In this document: piece by piece, positions 31,022-58,012 of the stretch
Layout: every line of letters begins with the position of its first letter
How positions within the stretch are numbered: the first letter of the stretch is position 1
Notes under the pieces: model-generated
Seen by the model: the letters and a program-made list of their open reading frames with translations, nothing else
The model's database searches: none
Told to the model about the DNA's origin: nothing
From: a virus
Taxonomy: Duplodnaviria; Caudoviricetes
Length of the DNA stretch: 58,836 nucleotides
Reading direction: 5' to 3' (one strand)
Virus record (IMG/VR): IMGVR_UViG_3300025120_000054
Location: 1-58,836 of that record
Program-made: the position numbers and the translations under genes

Positions 31022-34000
31022 ATGTTTGAAGTAAAAGACCTTTACGATTTAACTTTACCAGGCGCATTTGCTTCGGCAGAAGAGTGGGTACAGTTTTCAT
31101 CATCTGCTAGTCCTGAAGACTTATATAGTTTATTGCAAGATGGTGCATTTAGTTCAGTAGAGGAATTTCAACAGCAAGTTAATTTTGGAGCATCTCCTGT
31201 AAAAAAAAAAGAAGATACGGTATCCGTATTGGAGGATGGTTCTTCGGGCTTACAAGAGCCTAGTGTTCAGGTTGAGGAAGAGCAGATTGACTTTGATCCT
31301 ATTGCAGGAGTAACAGCAATAGAAGAAACAGGGGTGCTACCCACACCACCACCACGAGATTTTACACAGCCTTTCTTAGGCCCGGTTGGAATGGACGATC
31401 CTATGTCCGTTGAGGAGCAACAGGAATTATTAAATAGATATTCTGGAGTAGAGCCTGAGAAACCTAAGCCTACAATGGTAGAGGAGGAGAGCGTTATTCA
31501 ATCTCCTTTTGGTTCACGAATGGGAGGAGGGAAACTAAAACTTCCGTCTAAAGAAGTAACTCAAAAGTACGAGCAAGAAAAAACAAAGCGAGATTTAACT
31601 AGAGATAAAGATAGAAAGATTGGATATGTCTTAAACAATTTAGATGAGAATGAAGGCGTAGCATTATTTCAAAATCTAGCATCGACACGAGGAGAGATTG
31701 CAGATGAGGAACTACAACAAATGGTAGATGTAGTTGATAAAAAAATAATAGACAACTACGGTCAAGAGGAGTATAACCTTGTTCAAAAGATTGGAGGGAA
31801 TGTAACACCTGAAGATTTATTTTATGGAGGCAACATAAGCACTTCGCCATCAGTTGTTGATAACTTAATTGTTGAAGGCGATGAGACTGCTACAGTAACG
31901 AACTTAAACAATGAGTTTGATGGAACACCATTTACTTTTTCAGAAGCTATATGGGGGTCAGATGCATTGGAGGTTAACGTGACAGATGGTGATGGCAGGG
32001 TTATAAATAGTAAAATTGTACGGATAGATGATGCTGCTAAAGCGAGCCAACAGCTAAGAGATTTTATGGCAAAGACCAATCTCTCAAAGGGTAATAAAGA
32101 ATTTTTGAATGAAGGTAAAATTAATGGTAAAGACATTAAAAAACTTTCAAGCGAGGAACAGAGTTTAGCCGAGTATAAGTATATGTTAGAGAACAAAGAT
32201 AAGTTCTCCGCAGGTAAGGGTACAGGATTTAGTATGGATGCAAATGCCATCATGCGTTTCGTGGAAGACAACCCTAACTTCTTTCCTCCTGAAGAATTGC
32301 AAAGCATAAAGCTACAACTTGATGAAGCATTGGCAGACCAATACAAAGAAGATGAGCAACTAGAAGGTTCATTTTTTGGTTCATTGGGGGAGTCTTTTGT
32401 TAAAGGCTTAATGCAGACTCCTAAGTTTGCCACTAACCTTGCGATTGATATAGGAGGGGCTTTGATGCCTAGTATGTTTATACCTGCTAATCCAAATAGT
32501 GCTATAAACTTTGACAAGAATGGTAATCGATTGTCGGATAGTGAGATTGTAGACAGAGTCAAAAAGCGAGCAAAAAGAGATATGATAGCCGCAATGGACA
32601 ACGCTGTTGAATCATCCTTTACTGGTACTACCCAAGCGTGGATGAATAGTGAGGAGAGAAATGATTATGCAAAAGCATTAAACTTTTTGTTTGAAAGTCT
32701 TGGAGTTGTGGCTTCTACAGGTGGTAGATTTTTAAAAGTAAAGCCTGGGATGACAGCGAAACAGATAGCAGCTATACAAAAAACTGCTAAAACACGAAAT
32801 GCTTTAGCGTTCTTTGCATATGCCGCCAATGGTATCGAAGATGAAATGGCAGGTACTGAATACGATGAATTGTCTGAGTGGAAAAAGAAACTTATATCAT
32901 TTCCATATGGAGTAATGATTGGTGCTTTAGAAAATTTAGGATGGGAGGCATCAACAGGTGCGTTTGGAAATAAGGTGTTCGACAAGATTTCTAGAAATAT
33001 AATCAGTAAGGCGTTAAAGAGTGTCCCTAAAGATGCATCTGAAGAAGTTATTAAAACAGCAATAGAAAATAGCACTAGGGCAGCAATAGCAGATGGTACA
33101 ATTAAAATTATTAGTGGTGCTTTAAGTGAAGGATTTGTTGAAGGAACTCAAGAGTTTGGCGATGTTGGTTTAAAGAATATAGTCAATGGTATGATGGAGA
33201 AGGATTACTTTGCTGACGCTCCTGATTTAACTACACTAAAAGGAGTGAGAGAAACTTATGATCAAGCAAAAGAGTCTGGGTATTATGGCTTTATGGCAGG
33301 TTCTGGTGCAGCAGGTGGTGGAGGCTTGATTCAATCAGGTAAAAAAGCATTGCGAAGAGATGCTGACATCCGAGAGTATAATGAGCGAAAGGAGGCACAT
33401 ACCAACGAGACTCAAAGAAACAAATTAATTTATAATATTACTAACGCACAAAGACAGGGACAATTAACTGCCGAACAAGCAGAGGCTGCAAAAGAAAAAG
33501 TTCTTGAGGATGCTGCTACCTTTGAACAGATACCTAATGAGGGGCTATCTAATAAAAATAAATTAGAATCATTTGATTTAATTACTGAAAGAAACAATCT
33601 AGAGAAAGAGATTGCCGGAAAGAATGAAGAGCTTGTTACGAAACAGAAGGATCGTATACGAGATATTAATGCACAACTAACAATAATAGGAACACAAGAT
33701 GCCACTACAGAGCAAGAATCAAGCGACTTGGATGAGGATCAACAAGCCTCAGATGTACAAGGAATGGAGGAAGGAACACCCCAACCAGAACCTGAGCAAG
33801 TTACCGCTGAAGAAGTTGAAGTCAAAGAAGAATTAAAACCTACCGAGGAACAACGTGAGAAGCTAGAGAAGAAGGCAGTACGAGAGTTAAAGAGAGAGAA
33901 TCGTCAGACTAGAAGAAAAGGATTTAAGGGGGATAGAGTTAAAGGTACTCGTAAGAAGTATGAGCCTACTCAAAAAGATATTGATGCTAGAGTTGATGAG

Positions 34001-37000
34001 TTATTTCAAGCACAGCAACAAGAAGACCAAGAGGTATTAGACCTTGAGGCTGCGATTGAGGGTGAGGTCAAAGAGGGTAGGGTATTGCCTAGCGAGACTA
34101 CTGCTGTTGAAGAAGTAACTACTGAGGAAGCACCTGTAGCTGAGACAGTGGTTGAGGAAGAGGTGACTACCGAGGAAGCACCTGTTGCTGAAGAGGAGAA
34201 AAAAATAGTAGATGGGGAAGTAGGTGATACATTTAAAAGTAATAGGGGTACAGAAGTTATTGTTAAGAAAACTAAAAACAACATTATAACTCAAAGCAAA
34301 ACTGAAATGATTGACCCTGCCAATCAAAAAGATTTTGGGTTAAAAAACGTCACTAAAATTTATGAGCAGATTTATGGTGACAAAATGAATGAAACTAATT
34401 CTGTTCCAAAACTTAATGTATATTCAAACACATCGATAGTTACTGGTAAAAAAATAAGCAAACAGCGAGAAGAAACTCCTACAAAGAAAGCACCCACCAA
34501 GACAAAGGTTGATGGTGTAGTGATGAGCGATAAGAAGCGAAGCAAGAAGGAGCAGGCTCTTGTAGACAGAGCCAAGCGAGCTGCTAAGTCATTGACAAAG
34601 ATTGGTGAGGGAGGTGTAACCGTAGAGGTGCATGATGACACCGATAGCTTTAAGAACGTTACAGGGCAAGATGGGCGTGGTGCATACGACAAGACTAGCA
34701 ACACAATCCATATCAACTTATCCAAGGCTAACAATACCACCGTTGCACACGAGGCGTTTCACGCAGTGCTACTACAGAGGGTAAGTAATACCGCTGATGT
34801 AACCAAGACAATGTTCGATGCTGTGCGTAAGGCAGGTAAGGGAGACACGAGAGTGATGGAGTACACCACTACTAAAGTGGTTGATGGAAAGACTGAGACT
34901 GTGACTGAAACCTCTACAGTTGAGGAGTACTTAGAAGACTTTGCTAGCAAATATGAGGAGAACATTCAAGACGAAGAGAAGCTCGCTGAGTTGACAGGTC
35001 TACTCGCCTCAAGTTATGTTAACCTTGCACCTGCACCGAAGTCAAAGGTGCGTCAATGGGTGGACAAGGTGATGACTCCTATCGCAAAAAGACTAGGTAT
35101 AAAGGTTGAAGAGTTTACCGATACTGATCAGGGCGTTGTTGATTTGTTGAATGCAATCTCTGCCAAGGTAACAATAGGTGAAGAGATTCAAGAGGGAGAT
35201 GTTAAGGTGCTTGAGGAGATAGAGACTAAACCTGAGACCAAGAAGAAAGGTAAGACAAAGAAAATAAGCTGGACTAAAAAGCAATCTAAGCCACAGGGGG
35301 AGTCAACTCAAAAAACAAAAGAGGTTCAAGCAAAGATAAGAGACTTGGTTAAAAGGTATGAGGGTGGTGAGATTACCATTGAGGAATACAATAAGCAAGC
35401 CGATGATATCATTCCTGTTAAAATGAAGGAAGTGTTTGTCGATCCCGTAACACAAGAGGAACTGATGGTTGGTTTGAAATCTAAAAACACTCAAACAAAT
35501 TCTCCTATAAAAGAAGGCGCGGATGTAAGTCTTAGAATAGACATACCATTTATGAAGCGTACAGGAAAGGCTTCGGTTACAATACACGAAAGAAAAAGTC
35601 CAAAAGATATAACAGGTCGTGTGCTTTCTTATAGAGGCTCTGCTGTTATAAAGGATGTAGAGTTCTTGGTTAATCCAAAGCAATCACTTGCATTTGCTAC
35701 AGATAATAAAGTACACAAGAGTAGTAACTTAGGACGAATGGGTGGTAAGTTAGTTGACATTGGTAAGACTATTGAGGAGCAGAACGAGGCGGCTAAGAAG
35801 TTATCTCAACAAGCAATTGACGAAGGGTGGACACAGGTTGGTATTAACCCTGCAAAACATTCATACTTCTATGACCGATCCACCGGGAAACCTTTGAAGA
35901 GTGCTGACAGAGTTGTTCAGGTAGGAGACCTCATCTATGCAGAGAATGCTAAGACCACTACAGTATATGACGATAGATTTATTGTCAAGGGCAAGACCGA
36001 TAAGAAGGGAGACCCACTACGTTTCCAGAAGGAGGGGGTGAGTGTTAGTGAGGACGCACAGACAGATCCTGAAGAGCAAGGAGAGGGTGGTGAAGTAGGT
36101 ACTATTAGACTACAAAAAGCAAACATACAATTCAAACCAGCTCCAGGAATAGGGACAGACACAAGATCATTTGCAAAATTCTATGAGGAAAAAAGCCTGA
36201 GAGATTTTAATGGTAAGAAGTTTGTGACTAATATGTATGACTTTACCAACGCTGGAGAAGTGGATTTGGGGAATGGATATGTTATTAATCTATGGGGTGG
36301 TAAAAGTTATGTCCCATATATGTTAGAAAAAAGAGGTAAGAATTTAGGAGAGGTTTCTAATCTTGCTGCTTTTAATACAAAAGAACAGGCTGAAACTTTT
36401 ATCAGAAATTCTAAAGAAGAAAATGCTTCTTTGTTCATACCACACTCTGGTACTACTGAAGGTTCATGGCAGTTTCAGCAATCAATATTTCAAGAGCTTA
36501 CAAATTTAGCACTAGACAAAAAGATTCTAAGCAAAAAACAATTAATATCATTGTTTAATGAATCTATTAAAAGTAAGGATGGTAAGAAAGCGTTTAAAAC
36601 TTTTGTAGAGAACTACAATAAGAAGAGAGAAAAAGAAGGAAAGAAACCAAAAAATATAAGAAACTTTAATTCTTTTATAACTAATCCTAAAGAAATAATT
36701 GAACTGCTTGACATAGAAAACAATATGTCTCCAGACTTAAGAAAGATTTTAAACTCTAAGTTTTCTACAAACAAAGCATTTAAAAAAGCGTTAGGTGTGA
36801 ATAACGCTGTTGACTTTGCATTAAGAATGGAAGACCCGTTGAATAATGGTATATCGGGGGGAGACCTTATGGGTATAATTGAGTTCGATAATACTTCTTT
36901 TAAAATAAGAAAGCCTAACAAGAACGACCCTGATTATCATCCATCGTTTGCATATACTGTTGAGGCAAAGATAAAGGGAGTGTATCAACCTACAGAGTTT

Positions 37001-40000
37001 TATAAGTCTAATGAAGTTACTGATTCCTATACAAAAAACAATAAGGATGGCACGAAGGTGTCAAGAAAAACTGACTTTACTTTAGAAGAGTATGAGCTAG
37101 CTAAAAAAGGTATTACTATTAATGATGAAGGCAAGAAAGTTAAAATGAAATCAGGGCCATTCAAAGGTACACTAGAAGAGTTTCAGGAAATGAAATTTGA
37201 AAAGGCTAATGTATCTAGTAGTGCTGGTTCAATACCAAAGGTAGCAGAGTTGTCAGAGACTGCGATGCGAGAGCAGAAGAGTCTGATGCAGATAGGTAGG
37301 TATTACAATGCCAACAACCAAGGGTTCTTCCCGTCACAAGTAAATTCATATCAACTCAAGAGAGACTTGGAGCAGATAGGATTTGGTTTGAAGCGTGCAA
37401 AGAATGGAGCGTACTACGCCACAAGAGGAGGACGTAAAGTAAATCCATTCCCACCTGAGCCAAGTAGATATAGATTCCAAAGAGATGACATTGGTATCGT
37501 AGAAGAAAAGAGTTTTACAAGTAAGAACACCGTAGCAGATATCATCATTGCTGCTAGAAGAGAAGGGTTCAAAGATAAAGCCATTAGATTCTATATACTA
37601 AAGAGGCGATCAGATATCAAGGAGGAGAATGGTAAGCCTTTGCGAGCGAAGACTGTAGATGATATGCTTAGACTACCTGCAAATATATTAGAGAATGTTC
37701 CGGATAGTTTCAAGGAGATTGAAGGTGGAGCAGCAGCAGGTCTAAGGTTGTATCAAAAGGTTGAGCAACTTAGAGATAAACTTCTTGCCGCCAACGCTAG
37801 AATAAAATCTCCTAAGTTGTCTGACGCTGGTATCAAACAAAAGATAAAGGAGAAGAGAGAGGAGTTAAAAAAGAAAAAACTTTCAGACGAGCAACTCGCC
37901 AAAGAGTTAGATGCTTTCACTAAAAGAGAATACAAGAACAACAAAGCTCGTAAAGAGATGAAGACCGAGAGTGAAATCATGGATGAGGTTATTGAGTTCT
38001 TAGAGAAACAACCTGAGTACATCGAAGCTGGTGACAAGGGTAAGAAGACACCATCTCTACTTCAGTCTAAGATGCAAGCAGAACTTCAAGCAACGATTGC
38101 CTTCCGACCCTCTAGAGAGGTGGCTCAGAATCTTTCTAAGTTAAAGAATAGAGCAAGAGCAATGGATAAGGCAGGTAGAGACCTTCAAGAAATAAAGCGC
38201 CAGCTTAGAGCAACACTTCGTAAGTCACTGCCAAAGGCTGAGTACTCTAAGCCAGAGGTGATGAGACTTATAAGTGAGATTGCAAAAGTAGATGCAAGTA
38301 ATTTACAAGACGTAATTGGAGAGATAGAAAGTCTTATTGTTAAAAAGAACGTACAAATACTAGAGGCTCAGATAGACAAGCTATTAGGGACTAAGGTTGC
38401 TAAGAGTGAGGCTGGAAGACGTAAGGGTAAGTTTGGATATGATGAAGCGGCTAGACTCGAAGCGATCAATAACAATATCGTCAAGAATAAAGATGTTGAT
38501 GGTAAGGTAGTTAAGTATACTGCTGAAGAAATCATGGAGAAAAATGAAACACTTCGAAAAGAGTTTAATGAACTGATGCGTAACCCTGACGGATTAAGCA
38601 CAGAGAATATAAATAAGCTCACCGATCTTCAGATAGCAATCAACATCAACAGTGCCAATCTAATGAAGGCAGAGTTGGCGAAGAAGGAAAGAATCAGTCC
38701 TAACATCATTGCACCATTGGTGTCAGCACAAGAGTCACTACAAGAATTAATCGAAGAGGGTCGCTCTAAATTTAAAGCAGAACTTCAAGAGGCGCATGAA
38801 GAATACCAACGTCAGTTTGCTGTGCTTTGGGAAGAGATGACAGGACAAAAGTTAGATATGTCTGACCCTGAAGTTCAGAAAACAATCAACGAAAAAATTA
38901 AAGAAAAAGAAAGTAGAGAAAGTATTAACGCTAAGAAGACTAAGTTTAGACAAAAAGTTATTAGTATTGCTGACTCTATAGGATTAGGTTTTAATAAGGC
39001 TGAAGCATTGTTTGGTTTAATGGATAAGATATCTATTATGCCAGGTGATTTAGCAGGTGGGCGTATTCAAGAAGAGATTACTGATAGGGTTAATGAATCT
39101 AGTAGGATTTATAAAGGTAGGATGTTAGTTCAAGAAGAGAACCTTGAGGATAAGATGAAAGAAATATTTGGTAAAAAGTGGAGAAAGAAAACTACTGAGT
39201 TTAACAAACTAACAATTCCATTTAAGACTTCAAATAAAAATGAAACCATATCTCAAAACCAATTAGCGTACTTATACAATCAGTATAAAGACCCGGCTAA
39301 TGCAGGTTCATTTAAAACAATGTTCGGAGAAAACTATGAGCAAGAAATGGATAAGCTCATATCAAAGTTAGATCCTCAATTAAAAGAGTGGGCAGACTGG
39401 CAGGTTGATGAATTCTTTCCATCAGTTTATGAGTACTATAATGACACATACAGAAAGATATATCGAACTGATATGCCATGGAATCAATTCTATGCAGGTA
39501 GAATATATAGAGACGGTATAGTAGATGAGCCATTAGACTTGTTAGCAAACGCTTCAATACTTAGAACCTCAGTAGGTGCAGCTTCGACATTAGAAAGAAA
39601 GAAGAATACAAACCCCATCACTGCAATGAATATCAATAATGCTTTGACAAGTTATGTTCAGGACATGGAATACTTTGCGGCATACGCAGAAACAATCAGA
39701 GATATTGATAAGATGTTTACGAATAAAAATACTACAGAATTTTTAAAGAGTAGATATGGTAATGATATAAATGATTTGATTAAGAACTCAATTCAAAAAA
39801 TCGCAGGTAAAGGGCCACAGAAATTCAAGATGGCTCGGTTCATAAATTGGAGTACCAATGCGTACATATTATCTAAACTAGCAATTAATCCTGTTGTATT
39901 TATAAAGCAGCTTACATCTATACTTACATATGCTAATGACATTGGTTATGCAAATTGGATTAGATACTCTAAAATTGGAGACACAATCGCAGGTGAACGT

Positions 40001-41077
40001 AATAAAATGAAACAAGATTATGATGAAATTATAGAGAACTCCATATACCTAAAGGATAGAGCTAAAGGATTAAGTATTAGAGATGCAATTGCTAACTATA
40101 GTAAAGGCCAAAGCAATTTTATTGAGAAAGAAAAAAGAGAGCGTATAAAAGAGTATGCAATGATGATGACCAAGGCTGGTGATAAAGCAGCGATTATGTT
40201 AGGAGGTCTTCCAAACTACAGATACTACAAAGCTCAATACAAGAAAGAGAATCCAAAGGCTACTGAGCAAGAGGTGATTGATTATGCTATTAGAAAGTTT
40301 GAGCGTGACACCAAGAATACTCAGCAGTCTAGTGACCTTCAAGATCGTGACTATTACCAAACTGATGATGGCTTAATGAGAGCATTCAATATGTTCATGA
40401 CTACACCAAAACAGTATCTAAGAAAAGAAATAGTAGCGGCTAGAAACTTAGGTAGAAAAATTAAAGCAAGAGATAGTAAAGCGGGTAAAGGAACAATAGG
40501 TGAAAACATACGTCAGTTGGTAACGTATCATGTAATGATGCCAGCATTATTTCAATGGGCAACGCTAGGATTCCCAATGGATTTTGATGATGAAGATAAA
40601 ATGGATATGATCAGAGCTGTAGTATTAGGAAACTTTAATGCTATATTTCTTGTTGGAGATGCCATTACTATGTTCGCAGATTATCTTACAGATAAGCCTT
40701 GGGCCGCAGATGCTGAATCAATACCTTTTTTAGAGTCAATAACACAGATAATAAAAGCGTTGAATAAGTGGGAAACAAAAACAAATGCTGCAAACCCAGA
40801 CCCTGACAAAATATATGATGCACAAAAAAATGTTTTTATATCGGTAGGTGAAACTTTTGGTGTGCCATTGAAACAACTTGATAGGTTTTCACAGAACTAC
40901 TACAAGCTATTTACTGAGGACATGGATAATCCTGAAAAAGTAAGGCGTGTATTAAACTATTCTGATTACACTATAGAAGGTAAGAAGGATGACAAGAAGA
41001 AGAAAGACTCAGGTAGGTCATCAGGTAGGTCATCAGGTAGGTCATCAGGTAGATCATCAGGTAGGTCTAGCAACTAG
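31022..41077 (+). CDS. Giant internal virion / polyvalent protein with zincin (HEAFH) motif
   Basis: 3351 aa; IHINL...TVAHEAFH...EEKLAE; hydrophobic Gly/Ala segments; last gene of late arm. Confidence 0.8.
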   Translation: MFEVKDLYDLTLPGAFASAEEWVQFSSSASPEDLYSLLQDGAFSSVEEFQQQVNFGASPVKKKEDTVSVLEDGSSGLQEPSVQVEEEQIDFDPIAGVTAIEETGVLPTPPPRDFTQPFLGPVGMDDPMSVEEQQELLNRYSGVEPEKPKPTMVEEESVIQSPFGSRMGGGKLKLPSKEVTQKYEQEKTKRDLTRDKDRKIGYVLNNLDENEGVALFQNLASTRGEIADEELQQMVDVVDKKIIDNYGQEEYNLVQKIGGNVTPEDLFYGGNISTSPSVVDNLIVEGDETATVTNLNNEFDGTPFTFSEAIWGSDALEVNVTDGDGRVINSKIVRIDDAAKASQQLRDFMAKTNLSKGNKEFLNEGKINGKDIKKLSSEEQSLAEYKYMLENKDKFSAGKGTGFSMDANAIMRFVEDNPNFFPPEELQSIKLQLDEALADQYKEDEQLEGSFFGSLGESFVKGLMQTPKFATNLAIDIGGALMPSMFIPANPNSAINFDKNGNRLSDSEIVDRVKKRAKRDMIAAMDNAVESSFTGTTQAWMNSEERNDYAKALNFLFESLGVVASTGGRFLKVKPGMTAKQIAAIQKTAKTRNALAFFAYAANGIEDEMAGTEYDELSEWKKKLISFPYGVMIGALENLGWEASTGAFGNKVFDKISRNIISKALKSVPKDASEEVIKTAIENSTRAAIADGTIKIISGALSEGFVEGTQEFGDVGLKNIVNGMMEKDYFADAPDLTTLKGVRETYDQAKESGYYGFMAGSGAAGGGGLIQSGKKALRRDADIREYNERKEAHTNETQRNKLIYNITNAQRQGQLTAEQAEAAKEKVLEDAATFEQIPNEGLSNKNKLESFDLITERNNLEKEIAGKNEELVTKQKDRIRDINAQLTIIGTQDATTEQESSDLDEDQQASDVQGMEEGTPQPEPEQVTAEEVEVKEELKPTEEQREKLEKKAVRELKRENRQTRRKGFKGDRVKGTRKKYEPTQKDIDARVDELFQAQQQEDQEVLDLEAAIEGEVKEGRVLPSETTAVEEVTTEEAPVAETVVEEEVTTEEAPVAEEEKKIVDGEVGDTFKSNRGTEVIVKKTKNNIITQSKTEMIDPANQKDFGLKNVTKIYEQIYGDKMNETNSVPKLNVYSNTSIVTGKKISKQREETPTKKAPTKTKVDGVVMSDKKRSKKEQALVDRAKRAAKSLTKIGEGGVTVEVHDDTDSFKNVTGQDGRGAYDKTSNTIHINLSKANNTTVAHEAFHAVLLQRVSNTADVTKTMFDAVRKAGKGDTRVMEYTTTKVVDGKTETVTETSTVEEYLEDFASKYEENIQDEEKLAELTGLLASSYVNLAPAPKSKVRQWVDKVMTPIAKRLGIKVEEFTDTDQGVVDLLNAISAKVTIGEEIQEGDVKVLEEIETKPETKKKGKTKKISWTKKQSKPQGESTQKTKEVQAKIRDLVKRYEGGEITIEEYNKQADDIIPVKMKEVFVDPVTQEELMVGLKSKNTQTNSPIKEGADVSLRIDIPFMKRTGKASVTIHERKSPKDITGRVLSYRGSAVIKDVEFLVNPKQSLAFATDNKVHKSSNLGRMGGKLVDIGKTIEEQNEAAKKLSQQAIDEGWTQVGINPAKHSYFYDRSTGKPLKSADRVVQVGDLIYAENAKTTTVYDDRFIVKGKTDKKGDPLRFQKEGVSVSEDAQTDPEEQGEGGEVGTIRLQKANIQFKPAPGIGTDTRSFAKFYEEKSLRDFNGKKFVTNMYDFTNAGEVDLGNGYVINLWGGKSYVPYMLEKRGKNLGEVSNLAAFNTKEQAETFIRNSKEENASLFIPHSGTTEGSWQFQQSIFQELTNLALDKKILSKKQLISLFNESIKSKDGKKAFKTFVENYNKKREKEGKKPKNIRNFNSFITNPKEIIELLDIENNMSPDLRKILNSKFSTNKAFKKALGVNNAVDFALRMEDPLNNGISGGDLMGIIEFDNTSFKIRKPNKNDPDYHPSFAYTVEAKIKGVYQPTEFYKSNEVTDSYTKNNKDGTKVSRKTDFTLEEYELAKKGITINDEGKKVKMKSGPFKGTLEEFQEMKFEKANVSSSAGSIPKVAELSETAMREQKSLMQIGRYYNANNQGFFPSQVNSYQLKRDLEQIGFGLKRAKNGAYYATRGGRKVNPFPPEPSRYRFQRDDIGIVEEKSFTSKNTVADIIIAARREGFKDKAIRFYILKRRSDIKEENGKPLRAKTVDDMLRLPANILENVPDSFKEIEGGAAAGLRLYQKVEQLRDKLLAANARIKSPKLSDAGIKQKIKEKREELKKKKLSDEQLAKELDAFTKREYKNNKARKEMKTESEIMDEVIEFLEKQPEYIEAGDKGKKTPSLLQSKMQAELQATIAFRPSREVAQNLSKLKNRARAMDKAGRDLQEIKRQLRATLRKSLPKAEYSKPEVMRLISEIAKVDASNLQDVIGEIESLIVKKNVQILEAQIDKLLGTKVAKSEAGRRKGKFGYDEAARLEAINNNIVKNKDVDGKVVKYTAEEIMEKNETLRKEFNELMRNPDGLSTENINKLTDLQIAININSANLMKAELAKKERISPNIIAPLVSAQESLQELIEEGRSKFKAELQEAHEEYQRQFAVLWEEMTGQKLDMSDPEVQKTINEKIKEKESRESINAKKTKFRQKVISIADSIGLGFNKAEALFGLMDKISIMPGDLAGGRIQEEITDRVNESSRIYKGRMLVQEENLEDKMKEIFGKKWRKKTTEFNKLTIPFKTSNKNETISQNQLAYLYNQYKDPANAGSFKTMFGENYEQEMDKLISKLDPQLKEWADWQVDEFFPSVYEYYNDTYRKIYRTDMPWNQFYAGRIYRDGIVDEPLDLLANASILRTSVGAASTLERKKNTNPITAMNINNALTSYVQDMEYFAAYAETIRDIDKMFTNKNTTEFLKSRYGNDINDLIKNSIQKIAGKGPQKFKMARFINWSTNAYILSKLAINPVVFIKQLTSILTYANDIGYANWIRYSKIGDTIAGERNKMKQDYDEIIENSIYLKDRAKGLSIRDAIANYSKGQSNFIEKEKRERIKEYAMMMTKAGDKAAIMLGGLPNYRYYKAQYKKENPKATEQEVIDYAIRKFERDTKNTQQSSDLQDRDYYQTDDGLMRAFNMFMTTPKQYLRKEIVAARNLGRKIKARDSKAGKGTIGENIRQLVTYHVMMPALFQWATLGFPMDFDDEDKMDMIRAVVLGNFNAIFLVGDAITMFADYLTDKPWAADAESIPFLESITQIIKALNKWETKTNAANPDPDKIYDAQKNVFISVGETFGVPLKQLDRFSQNYYKLFTEDMDNPEKVRRVLNYSDYTIEGKKDDKKKKDSGRSSGRSSGRSSGRSSGRSSN
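33699..33836 (+). CDS. Nested +1-frame basic protein, 45 aa (MPLQSKNQATWMRINKP...)
   Basis: Translated by hand; resembles MPFKSxxQ small phage proteins; A-rich leader. Confidence 0.6.
   Translation: MPLQSKNQATWMRINKPQMYKEWRKEHPNQNLSKLPLKKLKSKKN
41009..41068 (+). repeat. 12-bp tandem repeat x5 (tcaggtaggtca) encoding (SGRS)5
   Basis: Seen directly at the C-terminus of the giant gene. Confidence 0.9.
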
Positions 41078-55913: not shown

Positions 55914-56621
55914 CTAATGATTTAGGATGTAAATGGATTTCTTTCCTTTACCAGATGTTCCAGAACACAATCCACATTTAGAACAGCTAGATTTGTATCC
56001 AGATTCTTTACTAGCTGGACAATTTATGTACTGGCCTAGCTTTCTCTCTGTAGCAATAAAACTCCTGTATCCAAATTTCTCCGCTTTTAACTGTTGTGCT
56101 GGAGTATGTGTTGAGGCCATAAAGAAACGCCCTAAGGATTTATTTCGATGCCATTGATGAGTATACCCTGTCCAATTATCACATGCCTTTACAACGTCTT
56201 CAATTAATTCAACAGGATGTAACGATGGTTCGCCATATGTCCCAAAACGAACGAACGTGTTCTGAGACATGTCTATGATGCTGTTATATATCTTTTGATT
56301 GAATGTAGGTATATTCTCAAACGTCTTATACTCTTTTACAATTGAGCGCAACATACTTTTGAATCCTACATACTGGTTAAACTTATGCGTATAGCATAAG
56401 CCAAAACTATTAAATGGACAATCCATACAATTGGAATCCGCTTTATTGAAGAAATTCTTCATTCCAGATTCATCTTTTAAAATGCTCTGGAGCTGTGCTA
56501 AACTGAAGGTATACGTTTGCACAATTTTACGTTTCTTGTCGGATTCTATCTTGTCATTAGATGTCGTACCTAATCTGAATACTTGTATTGTATCCTTGTC
56601 TCTGAAAGTTACTCTTTTCAT
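55914..56621 (-). CDS. Cys-rich Gp88-like protein (possible Fe-S)
   Basis: C.DCP...CY, RFGTYGEP, WTGYTHQW, CP...CSKCGLC. Confidence 0.7.
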   Translation of the reverse strand: MKRVTFRDKDTIQVFRLGTTSNDKIESDKKRKIVQTYTFSLAQLQSILKDESGMKNFFNKADSNCMDCPFNSFGLCYTHKFNQYVGFKSMLRSIVKEYKTFENIPTFNQKIYNSIIDMSQNTFVRFGTYGEPSLHPVELIEDVVKACDNWTGYTHQWHRNKSLGRFFMASTHTPAQQLKAEKFGYRSFIATERKLGQYINCPASKESGYKSSCSKCGLCSGTSGKGKKSIYILNH

Positions 56622-56630
56622 GTCTCTGGT

Positions 56631-56807
56631 TTATCTGGTTCTAAATAATAATTGCTCTTGTCTCTTAGCATATCTACCAGATGGTGTTCTGGATGCTAAC
56701 ATTCTGCATTTTGCTTCCTTCAAAATACGCATGTGCTGAATGGATTTTTGCCCATTGTAATCGAATGCTTTTGTTCTTAATCTGTTAACTAATTTTTGGT
56801 AATTCAT
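56631..56807 (-). CDS. Small basic protein, 58 aa, directly downstream of the hammerhead
   Basis: Translated by hand (MNYQKLVNRLRTKAF...). Confidence 0.6.
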   Translation of the reverse strand: MNYQKLVNRLRTKAFDYNGQKSIQHMRILKEAKCRMLASRTPSGRYAKRQEQLLFRTR

Positions 56808-56821
56808 AACATTTTATATTT

Positions 56822-56884
56822 GGTTAAGACATCCCCGATTCACATCGGTAATGTTTCGGATACTGAATCCATCTTCAGTTAACC
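56822..56884 (-). ncRNA. Hammerhead ribozyme (type I)
   Basis: GGUUAA-CUGAAGA-U-GGAU(UCAGU)AUCC-GAAA-CAU..CCGAU(GUGA)AUCGG..AUG-UC/UUAACC: full core and three stems. Confidence 0.9.
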
Positions 56885-57370
56885 TTCCTTCTCCAGCAAA
56901 ACCGTATGCAATGTCACTGGTGTATGTGGTACAGGGGTTTGGCCTCCATGAAAACCTATGATGTTGAAATCATCTTTACCGTTGTGATATTTGACATCAA
57001 CACAGGTATTAAAGAGAACACTGAACGTGATTAATTCGCCATTACTGGTCTTTATACTAATCGTCTCTGATTTGTCAGTACATTCAATGTATGTATGCTT
57101 ATGCTGGGCATTGAATACTGCGAATCCTTTTACCTCTCCTATGATGGTGTTTAACGTATATTTGAAATCGTCTCCTACCGTTTCATCATGGCTTAGGATG
57201 TTTCCGAATACATCTGGACAAATATCCGTATCTGGTTTGTTGATGTAGTTAACGAATTCTCTTAGATTGCGTACCGTAGCAGTATAGTTACGATTCATCT
57301 GGATATGGAATCCGTTTTTAGCATTATAGTCTTCCAGATGCGCTGGAAATCGCTTTGTTGATTTGTTCAT
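56879..57370 (-). CDS. Hypothetical early protein
   Basis: ORF; its stop codon forms part of hammerhead stem I. Confidence 0.7.
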   Translation of the reverse strand: MNKSTKRFPAHLEDYNAKNGFHIQMNRNYTATVRNLREFVNYINKPDTDICPDVFGNILSHDETVGDDFKYTLNTIIGEVKGFAVFNAQHKHTYIECTDKSETISIKTSNGELITFSVLFNTCVDVKYHNGKDDFNIIGFHGGQTPVPHTPVTLHTVLLEKEG

Positions 57371-57790: not shown

Positions 57791-58012
57791 TTATGTTAAC
57801 GATTCAAATGTAATATCTCCATCTTCGCTCCATAACACTTGGTACAATTCTGTCCATGTGCTAATTTCATTTATCATGTATACATCGTCTTCAGTATACC
57901 TGTATAATGCGTACTCTTTCGTAATATGGATTTCTTCTCCAGATTCGATTCGTTTTAACTGGTCAATGGTAATTGAATCCAGTACTTTGTCTAATTGTGA
58001 TTCGTGTTTCAT
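57791..58012 (-). CDS. Hypothetical acidic early protein
   Basis: ORF in early operon. Confidence 0.65.
   Translation of the reverse strand: MKHESQLDKVLDSITIDQLKRIESGEEIHITKEYALYRYTEDDVYMINEISTWTELYQVLWSEDGDITFESLT

Follow-up and report, generated by a model that had tools for sequence, protein, structure and literature searches.

The window, that is, the whole 58,836-bp stretch of DNA analysed here, is a complete IMG/VR record with direct terminal repeats. Its PHROG matches are to a large terminase, a portal, a GroEL-like chaperonin (1191-2828 on the + strand, phrog_5725, E 2e-136), a primase/helicase and an exonuclease, and it also contains an ORF of 3351 aa (31022-41077, +). The terminase is 73% identical to that of the uncultured phage MW202828, and shares 46% identity with the terminases of the Flavobacterium elemo phages and 33-37% with those from Cellulophaga and Tenacibaculum phages. 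On the strength of these likenesses the virus, which is podophage-like and of a marine type, probably infects a host among the Flavobacteriia.

Near the right end of the window lies, in the leftward arm of the phage, a 2-kb run of small genes on the - strand, which would be early genes judging from their position near that end, ahead of the replication genes. Within this run, an ORF of 163 aa is followed by one of 58 aa after a gap of 71 nt, the largest in the run, the remaining gaps ranging from a 22-nt gap to an 11-nt overlap (Table 1). A search of viral contigs with the upstream 163-aa protein returned no relative. The second gene downstream of the 71-nt gap encodes a 235-aa cysteine-rich protein (55914-56621, -) that matches phrog_2554 (unknown function) and has no Pfam match; many phages of Mycobacterium and Gordonia encode relatives 25-33% identical to it close to their right ends.

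The gap between the 163-aa and 58-aa ORFs contains a complete type I hammerhead ribozyme of 63 nt on the - strand (56884..56822), identical letter for letter to the element described in an earlier sequence-only reading of this DNA: a 6-bp stem I, CUGAAGA, an extra U, a 4-bp stem II, GAAA, a long stem III with a GUGA loop, and the triplet GUC. All the defining core features were found in the window copy (C3 U4 G5 A6 N7 G8 A9, G12 A13 A14, the pair A15.1-U16.1, and an H17 that is not G), which departs from the strict consensus, in which the core has no inserted nucleotides, by the one U between A9 and G10.1. The sequence-only reading had called the element a complete hammerhead with a CUGANGA and GAAA core and a GUC triplet, and this description holds: the sequence is exact, the core is invariant and the three stems covary across 63 distinct copies. 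It had also described three closed stems, of which the three stems and the GUGA loop on stem III stand, but stem I is open-ended, as befits type I, and has no closing loop. What it had taken for a UA/GG interruption of stem III is a U-G wobble together with one A-G mismatch, so that stem III is a helix of 11 pairs with one mismatch.

Table 1. Features of the hammerhead locus, in order of transcription (copy numbers refer to distinct members of the family described in the text)
Feature	Position	Strand	Evidence or remark
Upstream 163-aa ORF, stop codon in stem I	56879..57370	-	No Pfam or PHROG match; absent from L031
Invariant A directly 5' of stem I	56885	-	A in 61/61 distinct copies
Whole type I hammerhead	56822..56884	-	Sole descriptor match in the window; model R1, 70.1 bits, E 1.8e-15 (window copy is one of the sequences from which R1 was built)
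Stem I, 5' strand GGUUAA	56879..56884	-	Ends with the TAA stop codon of the 163-aa ORF; 6/6 pairs with compensatory changes in relatives
Core CUGAAGA (C3 U4 G5 A6 A7 G8 A9)	56872..56878	-	C3, U4, G5, A6, G8 and A9 invariant in 61/61 distinct copies
Extra U between A9 and G10.1	56871	-	Present in 42/61 distinct copies
Stem II GGAU/AUCC with 5-nt loop UCAGU	56858..56870 (strands 56870-56867 / 56861-56858)	-	3/4 pairs covary in model-found copies
Core G12 A13 A14	56855..56857	-	Invariant in 61/61 copies
Stem III, A15.1 to U16.1, 11 pairs, one A-G mismatch, GUGA loop	56829..56854	-	Basal pairs 15.2 to 15.4 covary
Predicted cleavage site, 3' of C17 (56828) and 5' of U1.1 (56827)	56827..56828	-	From hammerhead geometry
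Stem I, 3' strand UUAACC; predicted 5' end of the downstream RNA after cleavage	56822..56827	-	Sequence; covariation in relatives
Conserved AA directly 3' of stem I	56820..56821	-	First A in 60/61 copies, second A in 49/61
Remainder of the 20-nt A/U-rich leader	56808..56821	-	No Shine-Dalgarno-like 4-mer
Downstream 58-aa ORF	56631..56807	-	No Pfam or PHROG match; conserved in L031

A descriptor consisting of CUGANGA, zero or one inserted base, stem II, GAAA, stem III, U, H and stem I matched nothing else on either strand of the window, even with stems as short as 3 bp. Among 1000 dinucleotide-preserving shuffles of the window, the same descriptor gave 29 matches with stems of at least 3/3/3 bp, one at 4/4/4 bp or more, none at 5/4/4 bp or more, and none with the observed stems of 6/4/5 bp. 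This result is insufficient alone against a chance origin because very many windows were examined at first, so that rare chance motifs are expected somewhere; it is the relatives of the element that settle the question.

The sequence-only reading had proposed an Infernal search with the Rfam hammerhead models as a check, and this check failed for the window copy and for every relative tested. No Rfam family matched the whole window at the gathering score, no hammerhead family matched the 151 nt around the site at E ≤ 10, and RF00163 and RF02276, each queried alone on the window copy, returned nothing at E ≤ 10. Twelve relative loci holding many copies yielded only two tRNAs and no hammerhead at the gathering score, and the shortest relative gave no hammerhead match at E ≤ 10. 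Because the defining hammerhead features were tested directly and found, we take this failure for a gap in the models and not for evidence against the fold. As for predicted folding, the minimum-free-energy structure pairs CUGAA with UUCAG and lacks stem II (-18.6 kcal/mol, versus -16.5 kcal/mol for the hammerhead fold), a preference of 2.1 kcal/mol by nearest-neighbour energies, which ignore tertiary contacts, and the overall fold z-score of the element is only -2.46. The competing pairing is permitted by a G at position 4 of loop II, which is found in 4/61 copies (family consensus U-N-A-A-U), and the window copy may therefore be slower than its relatives. A scan for promoters and terminators near the site found nothing above shuffled sequence.

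A search pattern comprising the core, the extra U and stem II, run on the viral contigs of IMG/VR, identified at least 40 stretches holding 43 copies; relaxing the pattern's last base brought the number to 46 copies including that of the window (33 distinct), and all 46 can form a complete hammerhead that has a 6-bp stem I, 4-12 basal pairs in stem III, U16.1, and C or A as H17. A covariance model, R1, was built from 28 sequences, the window copy among them, and searched against the window and 40 loci (430 kb). It recovered 76 copies (63 distinct) in the 40 viral contigs and the window, all at E ≤ 4.5e-6, of which 30 had not been selected by the pattern. Nine of these 30 have the extra U and 21 lack it, and their stems II are as varied as GGCU/AGCC, GACU/AGUC, GGCC/GGCC, GCAU/AUGC, GGUC/GACC, GUCU/AGAC and GCUG/CAGC, among others. 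The relatives carry up to five copies per locus, always on one strand (e.g. L009, L013, L014, L016 and L028), and the window has one copy only; its next best match to R1 (57837-57904, 15.9 bits, E 0.2) was considered as a second ribozyme and treated as noise, being weak and located inside an ORF. Some relatives have an insert of 55-69 nt within stem III (L013 3336-3449, L014 10495-10608, L010 10232-10340, L029 3961-4069 and L036 8850-8956, all on the - strand), and in the insert-bearing copies of L013 and L014 H17 is A.

How seldom chance produces the pattern can be gauged empirically from 596 Gb of prokaryote genomes, in which it occurred in just three stretches: two full members of the family in small contigs of metagenome-assembled genomes (MAGs), and one chance match that does not close. 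The two members (approximately L049 6348-6410 and L050 3751-3815, both +) are in small contigs of bacterial MAG bins, one of which bears the label Streptomycetaceae; the contigs probably come from phages and were drawn into the bins. Neither 1 kb of the window nor the 71-nt element found a match by blastn in a collection of named phages.

Covariation was evaluated in two alignments. The one made with MAFFT took in 28 of the 32 distinct copies whose flanks are complete and left out the four with a stem III longer than 26 nt. All of its 392 cells are paired, compensatory changes are present in 6/6 pairs of stem I and 3/4 basal pairs of stem III, none of 500 shuffles reached the covariation score, and sliding the partner by 1-3 columns left only 16-41% of cells paired; stem II is invariable in this alignment, having been fixed by the search pattern. 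The second alignment, of the 63 distinct R1 rows, was fitted to the R1 structure and leans towards it, and is the only one in which variation in stem II is seen; here 99.8% of 874 cells pair, 12/14 pairs have changes on both sides, 0/500 shuffles reach the covariation score, and sliding the partner again leaves few cells paired (15-41%). G10.1-C11.1 and A15.1-U16.1, the only pairs without variation, are conserved in hammerheads generally.

Conservation was tabulated for 61 distinct copies, two misaligned ones with a very long stem III being left out. Beyond the core bases listed in Table 1, A15.1 and U16.1 are invariant (61/61), H17 is C in 53/61 copies, A in 8/61 and never G, and loop II has U in 61/61, any base at its second position, A in 59/61, A in 45/61 and U in 59/61. 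The extra U, which the sequence-only reading had described as a tolerated variant, is indeed tolerated within this family: it is a polymorphism, absent from 19/61 distinct copies, and both forms occur within one genome. The same reading had suggested looking for covariation and a conserved core in related phage genomes, and both were found. These patterns of substitution show a hammerhead whose RNA structure is strongly selected, and no chance motif. The invariant A at 56885 may have a role in a tertiary contact, and the conserved loop II together with the invariant A residues flanking stem I suggests a contact between loop II and stem I. A pseudoknot between loop II and the 3' flank was considered and rejected, no Watson-Crick covariation between loop and flank being apparent by eye in the listed copies.

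The genes around the ribozymes were surveyed in 63 distinct contexts, after four of the 76 rows had been left out (two cut by locus ends and two misaligned). An open frame of at least 40 codons on the same strand ends near the ribozyme in 58/63 contexts. Relative to the first base of stem I, its stop codon falls within the interval from -5 to +7 in 51/58 copies and 6-30 nt upstream in the other 7/58; it starts at the fourth base of stem I in 19 copies, including that of the window, coincides with the UGA of the CUGA box in 9, and precedes stem I by 2-5 nt in 20. From the predicted cut to the next ATG that opens at least 25 codons, the median distance is 23 nt (interquartile range 22-28, range 1-63, n=62). 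Thus the UAA stop within stem I (TAA at 56881-56879) and the 20-nt leader before the start codon at 56807, to which the sequence-only reading had drawn attention, were correctly identified and are typical of the family. The leaders are 55% A, and 17/62 contain a Shine-Dalgarno-like 4-mer. Flavobacteriia make little use of Shine-Dalgarno pairing, and a host in this class would fit leaders that have no such motif.

A close relative, locus L031, matches the window at 92-96% identity along about 11 kb, and in this otherwise well-conserved backbone the right-end region is a mosaic of unrelated small genes. Homology between the two starts at 56885-56890, at the 5' edge of the ribozyme, and the genes upstream of this point are unrelated (163 aa in the window versus 76 aa in L031); the other end of the shared block, at 56617, has no ribozyme. 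Where the window has 56822-56890, L031 (11865-12309, -) has an extra ribozyme and a gene of 101 aa between the equivalents of the upstream gene and of the ribozyme, and this second ribozyme has compensatory changes in the basal pairs of stem III. The shared ribozyme differs at 1/63 bases (position 4 of loop II), the leader at 2/14, and the 58-aa ORF at 10/177 nt (4 synonymous and 6 non-synonymous codons).

Hammerheads cleave themselves 3' of H17, which leaves a 2',3'-cyclic phosphate and a 5'-OH. The reading preferred here, which we regard as quite probable from the conservation and covariation of the element, is that a genuine type I hammerhead on the coding strand splits the polycistronic transcript by constitutive self-cleavage. 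The 63-nt element would fold on the transcript and cut 3' of C17, either co- or post-transcriptionally. The upstream mRNA would keep its stop codon intact, followed by the body of the ribozyme (stems II and III) as a structured 3' end, and would terminate in a 2',3'-cyclic phosphate; the A/U-rich stem I, only 6 bp long, would then melt and release a downstream mRNA that starts with a 5'-OH and has 20 nt of unstructured, A/U-rich leader before the ATG. The adjoining cistrons would be uncoupled in stability and translation, making the element a natural insulator. Cleavage in vivo and an effect on expression are presumed in this scheme, and the chemistry of the ends is taken from hammerheads in general. 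Because the window has a single copy, it cannot free a gene on both sides. No RNA data set was listed among the sequencing runs that contain this DNA, and contigs from four runs that may be of RNA do not cover 56804-56947, which is neutral towards both expression and cleavage.

Regulation might be layered upon this cutting, as the sequence-only reading had proposed: a ribosome terminating on the UAA of stem I would keep the ribozyme unfolded, so that cleavage is gated by translation. The position of the stop inside or adjoining the 5' edge of the ribozyme in 51/58 copies favours such gating, as does the known footprint of the ribosome, which at that stop should cover stem I and the core. However, genes packed as tightly as those of the 2-kb run predict the same position of the stop, a few copies have it well upstream, and after the ribosome leaves, an irreversible cut is still possible, so that cleavage would only be delayed; we consider this added layer decidedly unlikely. 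A broader proposal, that the ribozyme acts as a device for translation starts beyond cutting, includes stop-gated cutting and the re-ligation of circles in arrays, and is unlikely as well. Under it, cleavage would create a 5'-OH, A-rich leader of approximately 20-25 nt, roughly the length of RNA that a small ribosomal subunit covers, and each internal cistron would become its own short-leadered mRNA, an effect that would be of greatest consequence in hosts such as Flavobacteriia; with the stop codon inside stem I, cutting would be delayed until translation of the upstream gene had terminated; and, in arrays, an identical stem I would let an excised single-gene RNA pair its ends and re-ligate into a circle. 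Stem I is identical in 32/44 pairs of copies within loci versus 420/1909 between loci, and RNA excised between two copies could pair its own two ends, but recent duplication or gene conversion are simpler explanations of this identity. Copies on the same contig (e.g. L009, L013, L014, L016 and L028) mostly share stem I and differ in stems II and III.

The same identity of stem I within loci is compatible with a role at the level of DNA, in which ribozyme sequences of about 60 bp would serve as patches of homology for the exchange of early-gene cassettes between phages, with RNA cleavage secondary. The edge of window/L031 homology at the 5' edge of the ribozyme, the different genes upstream of it, and the extra ribozyme and 101-aa gene of L031 are what such exchange would be expected to leave behind; furthermore, over all loci, 38/563 ends of homology blocks are located within 15 nt of a ribozyme versus 12.0 expected, under uniform placement that does not separate ribozymes from other intergenic DNA. 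Nevertheless, only these 38 of the 563 ends are at ribozymes, the far end of the block shared with L031 is without one, and a patch serving recombination would have no need to keep its catalytic core unchanged or to compensate mutations in three helices. Exchange at DNA level may coexist with a role in RNA, of which it cannot explain the invariant core, and we doubt that it is the principal function. Finally, the motif could be due to chance or be a decayed, inactive relic, for which the number of windows examined, the lack of an Rfam match, the competing fold and the modest z-score might be cited; but it is a full-length member of a 63-member family (R1 70.1 bits, a score high by construction as the window copy is among the 28 sequences of R1), all its core bases are intact, and it differs by a single base from the L031 copy while the flanks diverge, all of which make this explanation highly improbable. 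Self-cleavage that splits the transcript is thus retained as the preferred reading.

When R1 was applied to five whole phage records, there was one match, in Flavobacterium phage vB_FspP_elemoA_7-9A (17286-17351, -, 39.9 bits, E 1.2e-7), whose laboratory host is Flavobacterium sp. BAL314, and none in MW202828, phi19:3, phi38:1 or Gundel_1. The copy of elemoA_7-9A (NC_055852.1) forms a full hammerhead; it lacks the extra U, and a GUGA loop closes its stem III. Across all 68 elemo phage records, identity in the 261-bp region that contains it is 95% or more. In RefSeq, this hammerhead is overlain on the opposite strand by a CDS of 35 aa (KNV10_gp68, NC_055852.1 17275-17382, +, corresponding to L048 1776-1883), which stands alone on the + strand among - strand neighbours and was probably called as a gene in error.

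That hammerheads occur between phage genes has been known since 2010-2011; the present analysis adds a well-defined type I family of at least 63 distinct copies. Since the Rfam models miss the window copy and every relative tested, annotation pipelines are likely to miss the family. The literature searches, which covered published text, located no paper on this family, which may already be listed in the supplementary alignments of PMC3088659, and no paper joining hammerheads and a Flavobacterium phage; 12-nt strings of the core and stem II matched only unrelated primers. Likewise, the Rfam miss, the geometry of stop codon and leader, and the presence of a member in a cultured Flavobacterium phage were not found in print within the same scope. 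The regular context, in which the stop sits at the 5' edge and the leader measures about 23 nt, narrows the possible mechanisms, and the occurrence of the family in cultured elemo phages (68 records), for which a laboratory host is named, makes the question testable by ordinary phage genetics.

Among known systems, synthetic insulators of the RiboJ type place an engineered hammerhead before a gene to remove the upstream RNA context, and the ribozyme stays on the downstream fragment, whereas the type I topology of the window element would leave it on the upstream fragment. Regarding the insertion in the core, De la Pena & Flores are said to have described in 2001 that the (+) hammerhead of CChMVd has an extra nucleotide, reportedly an A, between A9 and G10.1; that hammerhead belongs to a viroid RNA and has type III topology, in contrast to the extra U that is polymorphic in this family of DNA phages. 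Rfam Hammerhead_1 (RF00163) has in common with the window element the type I topology, the core and the three-helix junction, and the other Rfam hammerhead families the core and the junction.

According to the accessible text of PMC3088659, HHphage of the haloviruses HF1 and HF2 resembles the window element in its location in the early region shortly upstream of a start codon (13 nt, versus 20 nt here), and the 5' end of a transcript was mapped within 3 nt of its cleavage site; it differs in having insertions near C3 and stem I, where the insertion here is between A9 and G10.1, in its need for high salt, and in its archaeal host. The fusarivirus type I hammerhead, as described in the available portion of PMC13725137, likewise fills an intergenic region (66 nt), cuts 7 nt before the start of the next ORF and yields a separate RNA for the downstream gene, but belongs to a eukaryotic RNA virus and is missing the usual loop-loop contacts.

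Close parallels are the hammerheads of phages and prophages (Perreault et al. 2011, PMC3088659; de la Pena 2017, PMC6155905), which, in the parts of those papers available, are similarly intergenic, on the coding strand, beside small non-conserved ORFs, and proposed to cut long transcripts into gene-length mRNAs. In prophages, they flank single genes and cleave transcripts of about 2 kb in vitro (PMC3088659). Self-processing of polycistronic mRNA is the standard reading for phage hammerheads (PMC3088659) and is likely for the window element; in the text consulted from PMC6765202 this role is suggested and unproven, the function of hammerheads in bacteria and phages still being called open there and in PMC6155905. 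These hammerheads often occur in several copies per gene array (PMC3088659, PMC6155905), and the multi-hammerhead arrays of Perreault et al. (2011) have several ribozymes on one strand; the window, with its one copy, is not of this sort, and its relatives have up to five copies on one strand. Type I hammerheads in intergenic regions of phages are already in print, as the available text of PMC13725137 and PMC3088659 indicates, and the window element therefore belongs to a known kind. In contrast to the common bacterial form in the available text of PMC3088659 and PMC6155905, which is type II with a pseudoknot, the family to which the window element belongs is of type I: its 6-bp stem I is open, its loop II is conserved as U-N-A-A-U, and the A residues that flank stem I are invariant.
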